A stretch of DNA of 64,000 nt from Octopus vulgaris (Eukaryota): positions 26,784,001 to 26,848,000 of the forward strand of contig OX597822.1 of NCBI GenBank assembly GCA_951406725.2. The letters run 5' to 3'. How positions within the stretch are numbered: the first letter of the stretch is position 1; every line of letters begins with the position of its first letter. Under the pieces are notes generated by a model that saw nothing but the letters and a program-made list of their open reading frames with translations, was not told the origin of the DNA and made no database searches. Below are positions 2,394 through 49,961 of this stretch, piece after piece. Position numbers and translations under genes: made by a program.

Positions 2394-2433
2394 GTCGAGA
2401 GAGGGAGAGAGAGAGAGAGAGAGAGAGAAAGAA

Positions 2434-2879
2434 GTTGAAAATGCACAGGGATTCATTTAGATTTTTTATCTTTTAATTTTTATAGATTTAGCTGGTTTCA
2501 CAGATTTCTCTGTCTTTTGAAAGTTGAGAGAGAAAGACATGGGGCTATGTCATGTGACAGCTTTAACTAACAATGCCAAATATATTGTTGCATGATATTG
2601 AAGAATAGATGTAGTAGAGAATGTACAAAAATTTCTAAAACCTGATCACATGATCATCCTCAACCAATCAAAATGTGTCCAAGACAGATGCTAATTTGAG
2701 CCATGCTCTATCTATAAAAACAAGACAATTTTTGAATTTCAGTCAGAAGCAAGGTAGTTGCAGCATAACTCTGCATCTTTCTGTCTCAACTTTTGACAAT
2801 CAGAGGAATCTGTGAAACCAGTTAAGTTTAAAAAATTTTTTTAATAAAAAATCCAAATGAATCTTAGTGCTTTTTCAAC
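2434..2879. mobile_element. Old inverted-arm element with degenerate hammerheads in both arms
   Basis: 2434-2550 is an imperfect reverse complement of 2763-2879. The right arm reads aactt ttgacaa tcaga ggaa tctgt GAAA ccag tt aagtt (2788-2828). Confidence 0.5.
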
Positions 2880-4155
2880 CTTTTTTTTTATATATTTCTA
2901 CCTGTGTGGAATAAAATAACTTTGTTTTCTACATATATATTGTTGTAATTTGGGATGATCACTTTTTTGCCTTTGTCAAATAGACAATGGCATTATATAT
3001 TCATTCTTCACTTGTTTATTACTGTTCTTATTCTACCTCATATCCAAGTGTCTTCCACTATACCCTTGGGCTGAGTGGATTTGGCAGATGGAAACTGAAA
3101 GAAGCCCATCATATATATATATATTTATATATTTATGTGAGTGTGTCTTTGTGCCCGTGTTCGTCTCCCCAGCATCACTTGACTACTGATGCTGGTGTGT
3201 TTTTGTACCTGTAACTTAGTGGTTCAGCAAAAAAGGCCATTTAAATATGTACTAGGCTACAAAGAATAAGTCCTGGGGTCAATTTCTTTGACTAAAAGAC
3301 CCCTTTGTGGTCCTGCTCCAGCATGGCTGCAGTCATGACTGAAACAAGTAGAAGAATATATCCTATATGTCTTACTAAGCATTTTGCTTGGCATTCTAAC
3401 GATTCTGCCTGCCCACAGGAATTACTGGATGATGTAGTCCTTGATGATCAAACAAATGAATGGGGATGTCATGACTGGAATGCCTTTGATCATAGGTTAG
3501 ATCTGCTCAACCAGGACTGACCTTGGGTTGAACAATAACTGCAACAGCAAGTGCAAAAATGCTGAAGTAGATATCAATAACAACAATAACTAGAACATCA
3601 ATAACACATAGCACTTGTAATAATAACAGCAATGTCAACAACAAGCCTAATGACAATGAGCGACAACATCTACAATAATAGCAATACAATACTCTGCAAC
3701 AGCTGTTGTGTTTCTTAATTTCAGAGATTGAAGAAAGAGAGAGAGAAAGTGTTGATGGGGTGGTGGTAAGGAAGAGGACAAAGGAGATGCGTAGTGAAGG
3801 CTAAGTAATTTCTATAATATCACAGGTGTCCGGAGACAAAAAAAAAACAGAAAAAAAAAATGAATGGGATAATCTAGATTGTGTTGCAGGGAATATAGAG
3901 TGAGATAATTGATTGATTGTCGATAGAGAAAGCTAGCAGAGAAAGACATCGATCACCTGTACATATGTTATTGCCATGTCTTGTAGTGCAATTTGTGTAC
4001 TAATATATATATGCATAATGAGTTCATATTCCACTGAGGTCAACTTGGCCCTTCATCCTTTCGGGGTCGATAAATTAAGTACCAGTTGCGTACTGGGGTC
4101 AGTCTAATTGACTGGCCTAGAGTAGAAAAGAATATATATATATAAATACATATAT

Positions 4156-4757
4156 GTGAAGACCCGTTGAGGCAAGTGAAAATCAAAATCAAAATCAAAC
4201 CAAATCAAATCAGATATCAGAAAGCAGAATCAAAGTAGCCAGTCGACTTGTACATACCTTTTCTTCTTGGGACACAAAACTCCACTTGTGAAGACCCGTT
4301 GAGGCAAGTGAAAATCAAAAGTCAAAATCAAAATCAAATTCAAACCAAATCAAATCAGATATCAGAAAGCAGAACCAAAATCGAAGCTGATCAACATCAA
4401 TGGAAATTACAGCTGTGATACCAGTGCCGGTGACAAGTAAGCGAACCATCCGATCGTGGCCGTTGCCAGCGCTGCCCCGACTGGCCTCCGTGCCGGTGGC
4501 ACGTAAAAATCACCATCCGTTCATGGCCGTTGCCAGCCTCGCCTGGCCCCTGTGCCAGTGGCACGTAAAAGCACCATCCGTTCGTGGCCGTTGCCAGCCT
4601 CGCCTGGCCCCTGTGCCAGTGGCACGTAAAAGCACCATCCGTCCGTGGCCGTCTGCCAGTTCTGTCTGGCACCTGTGCGGGTGGCACGTAAAAAGCACCC
4701 ACTACACTCAACCCATGCTATCATGGAAAGCGGACGTTAAATAATGATGATGATGAC
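4156..4757 (+). mobile_element. RTE 3'-UTR-derived repeat with about four internal 61-bp tandem units and a 5' duplication
   Basis: Unit gccgttgccagcctcgcctggcccctgtgccagtggcacgtaaaagcaccatccgttcgtg at about 4459-4700. About 4156-4230 is duplicated at about 4287-4375. Ends in a (gat)n tail. Confidence 0.75.
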
Positions 4758-4777
4758 ATACACACACACAAACGTGG

Positions 4778-4825
<48 letters not shown>

Positions 4826-4969
4826 TGTGTGTTCATTTCTCTTTTTGCCATCTGTGATTATATTTTTGATCTATATAAAAGAAGATATTTCCTTCGTTCT
4901 GCTGCCTTTCTTTCTATGAAATGAGAAAATACATCGCAGAACAATTATTTTAATGAGTTGTTTCCATTT

Positions 4970-5075
4970 ATCACCCAATGAGACACATCTGCACTGCCGG
5001 ATGCTCCTGAACCAGTTGTTAAGTGTCCCACCTGTGAGGGATCGGTGCTAGATGTGTGGAAACAATTGCCATGAT
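4970..5075 (+). ncRNA. Degenerate paralogue of the 62018 hammerhead
   Basis: atcac ccaatga gacacatct...agatgtgtg GAAA caattg cc atgat. The surrounding about 170 bp (4948-5121) aligns with 61995-62169. Confidence 0.5.
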
Positions 5076-5120
5076 TAATAATGAATTCTTGTATATTCCA
5101 TCTTCTGTCTTTCATTTACC

Positions 5121-5877
<757 letters not shown>

Positions 5878-15430: not shown

Positions 15431-16341
15431 ACACTCACACACACACAAATATATATAATTGTTTTTTTTTTTTCAGTTTCTGCTTACCAAATCCACTCAC
15501 AAGGTTTTGATTGGCTCTGGGCAAAGGAGAAGACACTTGCCCAAGGTACCGTGCAGTGGGACTAAATCTAAGGCCACGTGGTTGAGAGGCAAGATTCTTA
15601 GTCACACAATCACACCTGTGCATATGAAGCTACACCTGCATTAGCAAATTAAATTCAGGTTGCATGCTCTTTTTTTGTGTGTGTGTGTATTCTGATGGAT
15701 TCATTCATGTATTCAAGTTTTATAGTTGTAAATGTTTGTCTATCAAATTTTAAGCTATGCAGGATATATTTACATTCATGAAATTAGTAGTGATGCAGAA
15801 CTGGCCCAGAGTTATATTGTTGAAAACATCTCTCCAAAGTGTTGTGCTATGAAATTGAACTCAAAACCACATGCAAAATGCACCTTTTAACTCACAGCAC
15901 AGCTACAACTGTGCTTATTTATTAATCACTTGCCATTTATATTTTGAAAGATATATATATATATATATATATATATAGGTTATAAAATGAGATAGGGGTT
16001 GAAAATTCAACCCACCATGGGATAATATATATCCAATATACTGCCAGATAGGTACCCAACAAGATTAATACATAGATGTTAAAAATTGTCAAACAATCAG
16101 TTCATCTATTGTATTATATGGGTAAAGGTAATAATATTACCGTAAATTAATACTACAAAATTAGAGAATGGAGAAACATACTTAAATCAATAAAACATCA
16201 ACTATCCGATGATACCCAATCAATACTTTAATACACCATTACATATGAGTAAAGGCATTATACAAAATGAGATATACAGTAATAGTAAAAAGATAAAGAG
16301 ATATAAGTAAAAAATTTCAAATATAATATGCAATTAAATCA

Positions 16342-16457
16342 TAACTGACAGCTGTTTCGGCAGTGAGGGCAGTCATACCTCATTTAACCTATAAGCCATA
16401 AAGGCAGGTATAAATGAGGCATTAACAAGGATGCCCCACGGCCTCTTCAGAGAATTA
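16342..16457 (-). ncRNA. Identical hammerhead copy in the left inverted arm
   Basis: Reverse complement of 17062-17177. Confidence 0.75.
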
Positions 16458-16795
16458 AATTAAATTTGTTATAATTGTGAAAAATATTATATAACCATAT
16501 ACATATAAATATAAAAATATAAAAATGTAAAATATAAAAACTTATACATCATAATGCTACACTTATATAATATAATACTCATTGGTACAATAAAGGAAGG
16601 TAAACAGAACAAAATAAAACAAAATATATATCAGTGTATATATTAATATTAATAAGTACCGATATTATACATATTTGGCTAATAGTTTTTTAAATAAAAA
16701 AACTAACACATAGGGAGATGAAAAATAATAATTAAAACCATGGTTCAGTTCATAAAATTCTAAAGCTATAAAAGTTAATAAAAATTACTATTAAT

Positions 16796-16832
<37 letters not shown>

Positions 16833-17061
16833 GATACAGTTAAGTTTGCACCAAGTCCATCCTTTCAAGATCGAAATAACTACACTGATATATATTTTGT
16901 TTTATTTTGTTCTGTTTACCTTCCTTTATTGTACCAATGAGTATTATATTATATAAGTGTAGCATTATGATGTATAAGTTTTTATATTTTACATTTTTAT
17001 ATTTTTATATTTATATGTATATGGTTATATAATATTTTTCACAATTATAACAAATTTAATT

Positions 17062-17177
17062 TAATTCTCTGAAGAGGCCGTGGGGCATCCTTGTTAATGC
17101 CTCATTTATACCTGCCTTTATGGCTTATAGGTTAAATGAGGTATGACTGCCCTCACTGCCGAAACAGCTGTCAGTTA
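17062..17177 (+). ncRNA. Type I hammerhead ribozyme with 85-nt extended stem II
   Basis: CTGAAGA (17069-75), stem II ggc-cgtggggca...tgccctcac-t-gcc (17076-17160), GAAA (17161-64), palindromic stem III aCAGCTGt, GTC triplet ending 17172, short bulged stem I. Confidence 0.75.
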
Positions 17178-17423
17178 TGATTTAATTGCATATTATATTT
17201 GAAATTTTTTACTTATATCTCTTTATCTTTTTACTATTACTGTATATCTCATTTTGTATAATGCCTTTACTCATATGTAATGGTGTATTAAAGTATTGAT
17301 TGGGTATCATCGGATAGTTGATGTTTTATTGATTTAAGTATGTTTCTCCATTCTCTAATTTTGTATTATATATGTATATATATATATATATATATAATTA
17401 TGTTATTAGTATGTATATACATA

Positions 17424-18820: not shown

Positions 18821-18989
18821 ACACATTCACCTGTAAAATTTCCACTTATTTTTAATTTTTATTTTCCTAAAATTTTTGCTGCGTCTTGCAACCTTTTCAA
18901 TAGTCTTGACTCTCTATTGAAAAGGTTGCAAGACACAACGAAAATTTTAGGAAAATAAGAAATAAAGTGGAAATTTTACTGGTGAGTGT
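18821..18989. repeat. Fold-back inverted repeat (about 80-bp arms, 10-nt loop), PLE-end-like
   Basis: ...gtcttgcaaccttttcaatag / ctattgaaaaggttgcaagac..., containing the hammerhead-like ttgaaaa g gttg caagaca caac GAAA. Confidence 0.6.
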
Positions 18990-20270
18990 GGAGAAGGGAG
19001 ACTTGTATGCATGATGACTGCCAGTCTTCCATAAACAACCTTGCCCAGACTTGTGCCTCAGATGGGAACGTTCTAGGTGCAATTCTATGGTCATTTATGA
19101 CTGAAGCGGGTGCTTACCCTTTACCATTTAAATGATACCACTCCACTCACTAGGTAGGTTGGCCAACATTTTCTCTGAATAGGATACCAATCTGTCACAG
19201 GGTTACTCATCTACAGCAGAGTGGACTGGAGCAATGTAAAAATTAAGTGTTTTGCTCCAGTCTGGCAATCAAAACCATGATCTTTTGATCAGGTGTGTAA
19301 CACTCTACTGGCACTCTGTTGGTTATGATGACAAGGGTTCCAGGTGATCTGATCATCAGAACAGCCTGTTCATGAAATTAATGTGCAAGCGGCTAAGGAC
19401 TCCACAGACATGTATGCTGAATGTAGTTTTTGGAGAAATTCAGTGAGACACAGAATGTGACAAGGCTAGCCCTTTGAAATGAGATAGAACTCATTTTTGC
19501 CAGCTGAATGCACTGGAGCAACAAGAAATAAAATGTCTTGCTTGAGGACTCAACGTGCCATCAAGAATTGAACTCATAAACTTATAATCATAAGTAGAAT
19601 AGCCTACCATTAAGCCATGTACATTCACAAGTGCAACACTCTAACTACTTGGCCATGTACCTTATATTATATATGTATATGCACACACACACACACGTTG
19701 TGTATAACAATGCCGATAGTGTGTAGCAGCAATGCTTGGCTGGTTGATTGGTTGGTAATGTTATCTAGCCCCAGATCTAACAAACCATCCCTTTTATACA
19801 TGTAGGGGACCTCAATCCACATTATCAAGTGTACCCTTTTTTTATATGTAAGATGTGATTTAAGGGATGAGGAGGATTTGGCTACCATTTCAAGCAGGCC
19901 ACATGACCACCCAGAGGTTCCCTGTAAACTTGTGCTTGTATGTGTCTGCGTGTGACTTATGTATGTGTAAGCAGCAATGAATGAAAGTAGGGACTTTGTA
20001 AGTTTAATTTGCTGCTCTGGCTGACAAATGGTGGATACAAGTTGTTTATTAGTATGTATTTATGTCTTTAATTGATGTAATCTTGATCAACAATCTGAAG
20101 TAGGTAAAATATACTGTCTACAATCTGCTCATGCATTAAATAGTTTATTTTTAACATAATTTCTCTATTAGCAGAGTCTTATGTTTGTAATATTTGCATA
20201 TGTGGGTGTGTGTAGGAGTGTGTGTGGGTGTGTGTATTTATATGTGTAGGTGTGTGTAAATATATGTATG

Positions 20271-25809: not shown

Positions 25810-26366
25810 AGTGCTCCATTCTAGTTTTCTATTCAGGCTAGGTTTATTTTCAATTATGTGTGTAGCTTCTGTAATTTGTCTGATTGTTGCATCTGTTCAT
25901 GTGTGGACAATATTTTAATTTCTATATTGTTGATTGATCCCCCGTGTTCCTGTTCAGCGTGTTGGTACAGAATCAATGAGCTTTTACCTTCCTTGAGTTG
26001 TCTCCAATGCCCATTTACCTGCTCTCCTATGCTTCTTTCCATTTCCCCTACGTATGTCGTTGTCTTGTTACTGCATCGTCCCTCTATACATCTTATACTA
26101 TAGACTACATTTCTGGCTTTACAGTTTGTTTGTGGGCTAAATCTACATACAGTACAGTACTTATCCGTACAGGGGTTCTACTAAAAGGATAGGTTCTACC
26201 AATTATAGATTTGATAGGGTTGTTCCTGGCTTTTAAACAACCTTAATTCTTAGCTTAAGTTTGTCTAGGGTCCTTCTAAAGCGGTACGCCAGTTCACCTC
26301 CAGGGGTGGTGTCAACGAACATGACACTTTGGTATTTGTGGTTATCATACCAAGAGTTGGCCTTCC
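25810..26366 (-). pseudogene. PLE linker, Cys motif and GIY-YIG endonuclease (frameshifted, with stops)
   Basis: Manual translation across frameshifts gives WYDNHKYQSVMFVDTTPGGELA...IKVV*KPG, CTDKYCTVC, NCKARNVVYSIRC...TTYVGEMERSIGEQVNGH...YQHAEQEH and RQITEATHIIENKPSLNRK.EW. Confidence 0.85.
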
Positions 26367-28068
26367 CTATTTTCTTTTTGTCCTTTCTATAGTGTTCCAT
26401 GACTTGTTCCTATAGAGTGGGCAAATCCCATTCCTATCATTACATGACATATTATCAAATTTCTTCATGGCTCCTTTGTATACTCTGATCCTTTCTTTAT
26501 GGCTGTAACCTGAGAACTGCATGCGGTGAATGAAATATTGTATGTGTCTCTTTAACTCTGTGGGCTCGCACATGCGTGACACATTTCTCATTATTCTGAC
26601 GAGGTCTGCCATCAAAATATTGAATTTGGCATTGTCCGCAATGGCTGAGTTCCGGTGGATCAAGTATTTTGAGGCCATAGGTTTGGCAAAGTATGAATGA
26701 AGGATTTGGGTTTTATTATTCACAATTTCTAGCCAGAGTTCAGTGTCTAGTACTGGTAGTCTATGGTTGGGGTATTTAGTGGGGTAGTCTATTGTGACCT
26801 TAATACTCTGGTGGATGGAGTTAGCTATTTGCCGGATGCTCTCCATAGTATTAGTTTCTATTACTATATCAACATTACTCTCTTGTGGGGGTGCCTTTAC
26901 CACTATGTTGATATCATCAACATAGCGAGAGTACATGTTTACGAGTATGGAGTTTTGTGTTAGGCGTTCTTTAAGCCTTCTGTCCCACCATACCATGAAA
27001 AGATTAGCCACATCACCAGCGATACTAACGCCGATGGCTGCCCCCTCGTCCTGGGCATATATTTTATTATTAAACTTAAATATGTGGCCTTTTAGGGTAA
27101 CTCTTATACTAGCTCCTAGTGCATGTGCGATCATTTTCTTTACCTGATGGACATTTGCGGGGCTCCGCATGGCTCTGGTCCATCCGCGCCATCTTTCTAT
27201 ATGTGTCTTCCTAGCCATAGAAGTAATTGTGGGCAGTCTACCTCTTAAACATCTACTGGGGCAGAAACTACTAAGATTATGTTTATCTAGGTATTCATTA
27301 TTACATGTCAGTCTAAGTAGGAGGCCCAGTTCCTCTGTGTTGACATTACAAAACTTCACCTGGCTCTCGTTGATCATCTCCACGCACTTCTCCACCGCAA
27401 AATCTATGTCGATCAATGGGTATAGGGATACCACATCCATGCTACCCACCATACATCCTGTCAGGTCACAAGTGTTGTTACAGTCGTTGATCCTGCTGAG
27501 GAGATCTTCTGTGCTGTCACAAACATCAGGTGACATCCAGATTATAGGGCGTATGATCATTGAGAGGAAGTAGGAGATTCTGTAATTGCTAGCGATATTC
27601 GCTCCACAGACTGGTCTTGTTGGTGGTCCTGCTATAGGGTCAGTAATTACTTTATGGTCCTTGCGAAGTTCATACAGTGCCGGGATATCATTGTTCCAGG
27701 CTTGGAAATTATTTGCTGTACGTTTCTGGGGTCCCAGAACAATTGTCCACATCATCATGTGGGCATTGAGGACCTTTTCTCTCTCCTCATGCGCCTGTAC
27801 AGTTGTTATTTTTGTATTGGCGATATGAGGTTGCAATGCCTGGTTTTAGTTCGGTAAGCTGTCTATTGACATCCTGCCGAACTTATCTGTGGGAAGGCAT
27901 ACCACCTCTCCGTTCCTCGTGCGCTGAATGAGCTTATGTAGGCCACATGCAGGTTTAATCCCGAGTTGTTGGGCCTCTGTCTTATTCTGTCTCTGTCTCT
28001 TAGTGTATAATCCTAAAATCTGTCTAAGTTTGGTCCTAGCTATAGTGAACTGTGCTTCCATATGGTCA
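26367..28068 (-). pseudogene. PLE reverse transcriptase (disrupted)
   Basis: ORF 26367-27836 has GSMDVVSLYP, GAAIGVSIAGDVANLFM..WD, YSRYVDDI, LPVLD and KPMAS..IHRNSA. The same frame continues upstream through one TAA (27846-27848) into VVCLPTDKFG (DKG-like motif). A frameshift follows near 26367. Confidence 0.9.
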
Positions 28069-28669
28069 TTATATATACATATATATATATGTATGCATGT
28101 ATTAGTGTGTCTGTTTGTCCCCCACCCCACTCCACCCTATCATCGCTTGATAGCTGATGGTGACGTTGGTGCGTTTATATTCCTATAACTTAGCAGTTTG
28201 GCAAATGAGACCAATAGAATAAGTACTAGGCTTACAAAGACTAAGTTCCGGGGATGATTAGTTTGACTAAAGACGGTGCTCCAGCATAGCCACAGTCAAA
28301 TGACTGAAACAAGTAAAAGACAAAGTACTCTCAGTAAAGTGGTTGGTATTAGGAAGGCCATCCAACCACTAACCATACAATAGCAGACGTCTGAGCATGG
28401 TGTGGTACAGTCCAGGTGTGAGCAGCCTTTTAGTATAGGGAATCATGGCTCATCATCAGGTGGGCCACACTACCAAAAAAATAAACCAAAAAAAAATTCA
28501 AGGTAATGTCGTTCAGTAAGTCCTGCTAGCCACTGGTTGTCCATGACCAGTGCAATCCTCTGATTTGCCGGATCCTTTTGAACTGTCCAAACCATGCTAG
28601 CATGGAAGATTGACATTAAATGACGACGATGATGATTATGATGGTCCCCCATCTCTATTGACATATGAA

Positions 28670-49908: not shown

Positions 49909-49961
49909 TGGTTGGTGTAGGATCTTGGTGCTTTCATATGACCTTGCTCTACAGTATGCAG
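49909..49961 (+). CDS. ACER3: Internal coding exon (53 bp) of an alkaline ceramidase 3-like gene
   Basis: Polypyrimidine tract and acceptor (tttattttgtttcttttcag), donor CAG|gtactg. Translates to (x)VGVGSWCFHMTLLYSMQ, matching the ACER3 segment VGMGSWCFHMTLKYEMQ with the CREST-family SxxxH zinc-ligand motif. As recalled, the vertebrate ACER3 exon for this segment has the same boundaries. Confidence 0.88.

Follow-up and report, generated by a model that had tools for sequence, protein, structure and literature searches.

Features of the locus

The window, a stretch of 64,000 nucleotides of Octopus vulgaris DNA, had been described in an earlier note as containing a perfect 485-bp inverted repeat with a 242-bp spacer inside (TA)n. 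We found that, as claimed, positions 16154-16638 and 16881-17365 are reverse complements of one another at 485/485 positions, this being the maximal perfect extent with a sharp stop on both sides, and that the gap between the arms is 242 bp. However, the nature of the spacer had to be corrected, as both it and the stretch at 15978-16153 are parts of the inserted element and not host DNA. Reading from the left, a (TA)n target (15951-15977, no strand) is followed by a 176-nt 'tail' (15978-16153, minus strand), which comparison with family copies identifies as the distal 3' end, or long end, of a minus-strand copy, and which in a full element comes after the pseudo-LTR (pLTR) and continues towards the open reading frame (ORF). 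The left arm (16154-16638, minus strand) is the pLTR part of this 5'-truncated copy, and the 'spacer' (16639-16882, minus strand) is its further upstream 3' UTR, matching copies L027, L028 and L037 up to 16882 and containing (TAA)n at 16776-16832. The right arm (16881-17365, plus strand) is a second 5'-truncated copy, which finishes at the short, no-tail end and is flanked by the right-hand (TA)n target (17366-17396, no strand, with (TA)n at 17367-17396). Of the two copies, the one on the minus strand spans 905 bp (16882 to 15978) and the one on the plus strand extends between 16881 and 17365; comparison with family copies places the head-to-head junction at 2 nt of microhomology (TA, 16881-16882, no strand). 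Throughout the fetched copies (TA)n adjoins the 3' end of the element.

The window also contains an exon of an ACER3-like host gene, VVGVGSWCFHMTLLYSMQ (GSWCFHMTL; 49909-49961, plus strand). The first exon of a ceramidase gene is found on the plus strand as well, ~209 kb before the window begins. If both exons are of one gene the insertion is intronic, in agreement with the location in a plus-strand ACER3-like intron that had been envisaged for it.

We conclude from its sequence that two 3' ends of an autonomous Hydra-clade Penelope-like element (PLE), each truncated at its 5' side, were recently inserted here head to head. Published work on PLEs already describes insertion into (TA)n, inverted ends and hammerheads with a palindromic stem III, and opposite-strand hammerhead pairs 100-700 bp apart have been recorded for them (PMC4209133). 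The inverted repeat is therefore known PLE behaviour, and the single locus taken by itself is ordinary.

The element family

A search of the 2.8-Gb genome with a 161-nt query yielded 1,181 candidates, from which 41 scored matches at 99-100% were obtained. The view that this is a very young PLE insertion with inverted pLTRs is borne out. Long-stem hammerhead patterns run genome-wide returned 1,475 and 1,438 matches, with none for the reversed control; 237 of the long-stem matches represent older subfamilies and 13 a sister family. The family unit is ~5.6 kb and comprises the pLTR, an ORF and a long AT-rich 3' UTR (~2.3 kb), with tandem hammerheads 5.6 kb apart. The pLTR contains the hammerhead, which has the sense orientation and precedes the downstream ORF by ~500 nt. 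An intact ORF is present at 2414-5278 of copy L107, in an uninterrupted frame of 955 codons, and encodes a putative protein of ~950 aa with RT followed by a C-terminal GIY-YIG domain. This single ORF, with its YRDD and VVY...YIG motifs, is the arrangement expected of an EN+ PLE, as are the position of the hammerhead and the pLTRs, which occur inverted or in partial tandem and may be accompanied by a tail. The ORF additionally has SDKT, RWR, CNCRNKNKC (a CxCX5C linker), CSLC (CxxC) and CIH (CxH) and lacks CCHH; the characters given for the Hydra clade are DKT, an RWK-like motif, the CxCX5C linker, no CCHH, and CxxC plus CxH around E and N (PMC8557442, section 11). The preference for insertion into (TA)n is likewise a Hydra-clade trait. 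As the two ORF halves gave no Pfam hits, the RT and GIY-YIG assignment rests on the motifs together with an identity of 30-44% to most relatives; over a third of the RT half, identity to a protein named from Octopus sinensis is 97%. A search for a longer protein of the family found none, which is weak evidence, and the contigs that cover the pLTR (three runs presumed to be RNA and one presumed to be DNA) showed no GT-AG joint for a 5' intron. Nor did these contigs have a pile-up of ends at the cut site or an excess of A>G; as contigs retain neither ends nor editing, this speaks neither for nor against cleavage or editing. We conclude that the family is an autonomous Hydra-clade PLE, as placed by its motifs. 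The suggestion in the earlier note that it might be non-autonomous or retrozyme-like was therefore abandoned, since the arms are truncated copies of such an element, an intact ORF exists elsewhere and there is no tandem array.

Hydra-clade PLEs described by Craig et al. (2021; PMC8557442) share with this family the single ORF for RT and C-terminal GIY-YIG, the (TA)n targets and a 3' hammerhead, and a 5'-truncated inverted copy is recorded there too, for Penelope-13_HM. They are, however, 'generally <3 kb' with a canonical small hammerhead, a general rather than strict feature of the clade, in contrast to the ~5.6-kb unit, the 950-aa ORF with Asn-rich inserts, the ~2.3-kb 3' UTR and the 85-nt stem II found here. 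Hydra-1_Obim, an octopus element in the same paper, has a different, short hammerhead. With non-LTR retrozymes (bioRxiv 10.64898/2026.07.22.740005) the likeness is a type I hammerhead derived from a pLTR; those elements are tandem head-to-tail non-coding repeats, each unit with a hammerhead, whereas here truncated copies of a coding element are paired head to head, with an ORF reached further upstream. We rejected this classification. Assignment to the SECIS-bearing Naiad elements, which have an N-terminal endonuclease, an in-frame UGA and a SECIS core, was rejected as well; no AUGA core is present in any of 28 rows (A1) and the ORF has no in-frame UGA.

Outside the host, 59 metagenome loci and one viral locus matched the pattern, none of them with protein or DNA similarity to the family. 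Eight contigs from one metagenome record (L180, L191, L200, L209, L210, L214, L217 and L230) have short-stem hammerheads ~100 nt apart and are retrozyme-like. Several features of individual family copies were also observed. In the RT thumb of copies L073-L102, the same 1-nt frameshift in a C run occurs in 18/30 copies, with 12/30 in frame and the query having the shifted form, which could reflect either a defective sub-lineage mobilised in trans or recurrent homopolymer error. The L107 ORF has two Asn-rich inserts between the RT thumb and the endonuclease that are absent from most relatives and recall the N-rich inserts of Adineta Penelopes (PMC3846280). A LINE with AP endonuclease and RT domains lies inside the 3' UTR of a full-length copy (L033:1870-7778).

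The hammerhead core

Each arm had been claimed to carry an intact hammerhead core with an 85-nt stem II, and CUGAAGA, GAAA, the palindromic stem III and GUC were indeed found in both. On the plus strand, the stem I 5' strand (CT) and the catalytic box occupy 17067-17075 (CTGAAGA at 17069-17075), stem II occupies 17076-17160, and the GAAA box, the palindromic stem III ACAGCUGU, GUC and the stem I 3' strand (AG) occupy 17161-17174, with GAAAC-AGCT-GTC at 17161-17172 and the predicted cut after 17172. The left-copy hammerhead (16347-16450, minus strand, with stem II at 16359-16443) is the mirror of 17069-17172 and is antisense in a plus-strand transcript. The CU/AG pairs of stem I are intact in 27-28 of 28 rows. 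With an intact core and three stems this is a predicted type I hammerhead ribozyme; Rfam gave no match over the arm at E<=10, and none of the 150 listed among the 151 Rfam matches to the whole window lies inside the element. We also observed that at position 17177 both arms have an A where 51 other matches have a T, a change that extends a predicted alternative helix over the cut site.

The minimal type I PLE hammerheads of Cervera and de la Pena (2014; PMC4209133) similarly have CUGANGA and GAAA boxes, a G10.1-C11.1 pair, a short stem I and a palindromic stem III predicted to need a dimer. Cofolding of the 8-nt stem III palindrome here gave +2.4 kcal/mol for the 2-bp hairpin and -11.1 kcal/mol for the duplex, as anticipated for a stem III of the dimer type. 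It is predicted that, as in other animal PLE hammerheads, cleavage after 17172 would occur only as a dimer or with help from protein. Because the monomeric stem III is unstable and the duplex stable, an intronic ribozyme on its own would in any case be unlikely to cleave.

Two fixed 3' ends and a proposed mechanism of insertion

Copies of the family end either ~195-205 nt or ~370-380 nt after the cut site. It can be seen from a first set of loci that one long and one short end were present in 17/17 cases where both outer ends were in view (the ends of L006 and L029 were scored from BLAST coordinates, whereas the distal tail motif was used for L012 and L017; a further 5 loci had a single end in view). 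The same was true at 17/17 loci of a second set, comprising 18/19 of the close opposite-strand pairs among the first 100 matches listed, the 19th being already in the first set; L162, which joins two subfamilies, was left out and L163 was scored by eye. Combined, 34/34 inverted insertions have exactly one ~175-nt tail. A distant third Hydra family in this genome has ends at ~37 and ~108 nt, with one of each in 3/3 visible pairs.

A trivial explanation for the perfect inverted repeat would be an assembly or chimeric-read artefact, which might account for the identical arms, and homopolymer length differences between copies do suggest some sequencing error. We consider this scarcely credible, however, as the two outer ends differ exactly as at 33 other loci, and a count by eye over the first 100 matches listed gave 19 close pairs on opposite strands, all head to head and none tail to tail.

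The 34/34 end rule is consistent with a model in which both target strands are primed from two fixed positions separated by ~175 nt on the element RNA. Here the GIY-YIG domain would nick both target strands; one nick would prime at the short end, and priming from the other would take place at the long, tail end. Synthesis of each cDNA would terminate early, and the two products would be joined by 0-4 nt of microhomology. A different origin for the inverted arm, fold-back self-priming of one cDNA or antisense template, has been proposed for Adineta Penelopes (PMC3846280) and would explain both the identity of the arms and their shared private variants. Rare substitutions are common to both arms in 11/16 loci (16 shared and 6 unshared, excluding 3 loci that were skipped and 6 differences in L158 attributed to end effects), which also fits one template copied twice, and could additionally stem from gene conversion or assembly polishing. 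However, in L003, L006 and L008 each arm has sequence that the other lacks, and L022 has arms with no overlap at all, indicating that both were primed on the template, and the junctions across loci consist of 0-4 nt of microhomology or inserted bases and are not palindromes. We therefore regard fold-back as very improbable.

Two-site priming has a precedent in Poseidon from Anolis (Frangieh et al., 2024; PMC11167929), where both target strands are cleaved and extended in vitro, two initiation sites bound the tail, the protein is a predicted dimer, and the hammerhead cuts only with protein and is dispensable for insertion in vitro. The octopus family resembles Poseidon in having two 3' ends that define an optional tail and AT-rich targets. 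It belongs to another clade, however, and the Poseidon hammerhead overlaps the ORF start whereas here it lies upstream of the ORF; the tail is also ~five times longer here, PLE tails having been described as 30-40 bp. Two-site, two-strand priming has so far been demonstrated in vitro for this one lizard element (PMC11167929), and the rule of one tail per insertion, with a 175-nt tail that is easily scored, gives it genomic support.

Stem II is oversized and conserved

The 85-nt stem II (17076-17160, plus strand) consists, from folding and alignment, of a basal helix, a 9x3 internal loop, a 12-bp helix and bulged apical helices. Its fold has a predicted energy of -40.7 kcal/mol (z -6.6), and 0/200 shuffles were as stable. 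The earlier note had proposed that stem II may be a separate functional domain and that its pairing should be examined for covariation across genomic copies. Median identity against 30 older copies, which were found with a search pattern that fixed only four outer bases per side of stem II, was 0.83 for stem II compared with 0.59 and 0.62 for the 150-nt flanks, and in 28 distinct rows 98.4% of cells in the stem are paired. Two-sided changes occur at five pairs, with G-C to A-U twice in the basal helix and C-G to U-G to U-A in the upper helix. The covariation score was reached by 0/500 shuffles and the count of two-sided pairs by 46/500; these rows are related, coming from few subfamilies with ~4-5 independent events, and the structure was drawn from the same sequences. 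No match was found in the genome to a pattern for a short-stem version of the main family (3-30-nt insert). We conclude that, as judged from the aligned copies, the pairing of stem II has been shown to be under selection.

By comparison, the Hydra hammerheads in File S2 of PMC8557442 have a stem II of 3-7 bp with a 3-10-nt loop, and the longest entries in that file are plant PLE-X motifs with loops of ~29-35 nt. The 2014 descriptor (PMC4209133) specified a stem II of 3-7 bp and a loop 2 of 3-10 nt, and the 85-nt stem motif would therefore be invisible to it. A PLE hammerhead with a long stem II was not described in any of the published literature searched; a paper on O. vulgaris repeats (PMC13282606) counts recently active Penelope insertions, and the word 'ribozyme' is absent from its main text. 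What goes beyond the published record is thus the conserved, oversized stem II, plus the strict rule of one long and one short end in inverted insertions.

Candidate roles for stem II

The conserved stem II is a candidate docking site for the element's own RT-endonuclease. The explanation that we favour, and consider probable, is that the locus arose by two-site, both-strand RT-endonuclease priming into (TA)n of an ACER3-like intron and that stem II binds that protein. A more elaborate proposal, which we put forward tentatively, is that octopod Hydra-clade PLEs have a two-domain ribozyme whose ~85-nt docking arm recruits an RT-endonuclease dimer, licenses cleavage and helps to register two priming sites ~175 nt apart on a single RNA, yielding self-silencing head-to-head insertions. 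The third Hydra family, which has a tiny stem II, shows the same two-end pattern, and a long stem is therefore not needed for the two-end mechanism in general; the region of Poseidon bound by its protein has been located at the start of the ORF, not in a long stem (PMC11167929).

An alternative that keeps the same origin for the locus but dispenses with protein binding is that the long stem II acts within the ribozyme, either by stabilising or timing its folding or through a tertiary contact of the 9-nt internal loop with distal stem I. Contacts between stems I and II are a known job of peripheral elements (PMC10085705). At -40 kcal/mol the stem holds the G10.1-C11.1 base closed, the internal-loop UUGUUA is nearly invariant in A1 and the distal stem I helix covaries in older subfamilies. 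However, the contact is usually made nearer the core than this internal loop, which is 12 bp away and so beyond that position. Furthermore, the sole Watson-Crick partner found for UUGUUA, an upstream UAACAA, is lost in older subfamilies, and we rejected a pseudoknot between the two. A stem of ~30 bp also far exceeds what stability needs. On balance, a purely intra-ribozyme role seems to us rather unlikely.

It is also conceivable that selection on the stem reflects another function of the pLTR, namely as a DNA or promoter element, in translation or as the precursor of a small RNA, and that its position within the hammerhead is coincidental. The stem is of pre-miRNA size, the pLTR is the PLE promoter region, and the reverse complement folds too (z -5.1). 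Nevertheless, many of the changes are of G-U type on the sense strand, which favours a structure in the sense RNA, and there is no Rfam match; we judge this reading improbable.

Should the two-domain proposal be true, long-armed hammerheads would form a class missed by descriptor searches, and our findings suggest that some PLEs scored as having no hammerhead or a 'half core' may carry long-armed ones. The selected arm of stem II is in addition a handle for probing the role of PLE hammerheads.

Possible consequences for the host transcript

It had also been suggested that the antisense arm is transcribed first and could pair with the sense arm. The geometry supports this; a host pre-mRNA would contain the antisense arm ahead of the sense arm, the two would form 485 bp of dsRNA, and the intronic ribozyme would probably be silent. 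The whole repeat has a predicted fold of -815 kcal/mol. The pairing is not, however, special to this locus, since the antisense arm comes first in any head-to-head insertion whichever way it is read, making it a side effect of how such insertions are built. With hundreds of near-perfect inverted repeats in its introns, the octopus host would also have a source of long dsRNA, and the animal group to which the octopus belongs is known for heavy A-to-I editing.

Related families and other repeats

The older sister family (L108-L120) has a hammerhead stem II insert of 82-89 nt in 12/13 copies and of 77 nt in the other, with a sequence that differs from that of the main family. It has the stem III palindrome ACGGCCGU, similar end motifs, a tail of ~160 nt and an RT fragment 55% identical to the main family. 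A long hairpin drawn by hand for these copies is 91% paired, compared with 26-55% for slid controls; however, covariation in it was not significant (75/500 shuffles), RNAalifold failed to recover it, and z-scores for single-copy stems ranged from +0.6 to -3.1. A model of the main family found 2/13 sister hammerheads at E ~0.045, with one weaker partial match, and scored similarly at two other places in the sister-family loci, so that support from the model for the sister hairpin is weak.

In a second, very young Hydra-clade family (L121-L150), many 727-codon frames are intact, the hammerhead is minimal and the tail measures ~71 nt. Within the window, a second PLE-like RT (26370-27845) was considered as a possible member of the main family and rejected as unrelated (best E 0.39). 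The minus strand at 25854-28136 holds a broken PLE-like element of another type, with a 492-aa RT fragment, a weak RVT_1 hit and a GIY-YIG-like piece with cysteines. Finally, a separate small inverted repeat at 18822-18990 is MITE-like, with 53-nt arms plus outer arms of 31 nt.
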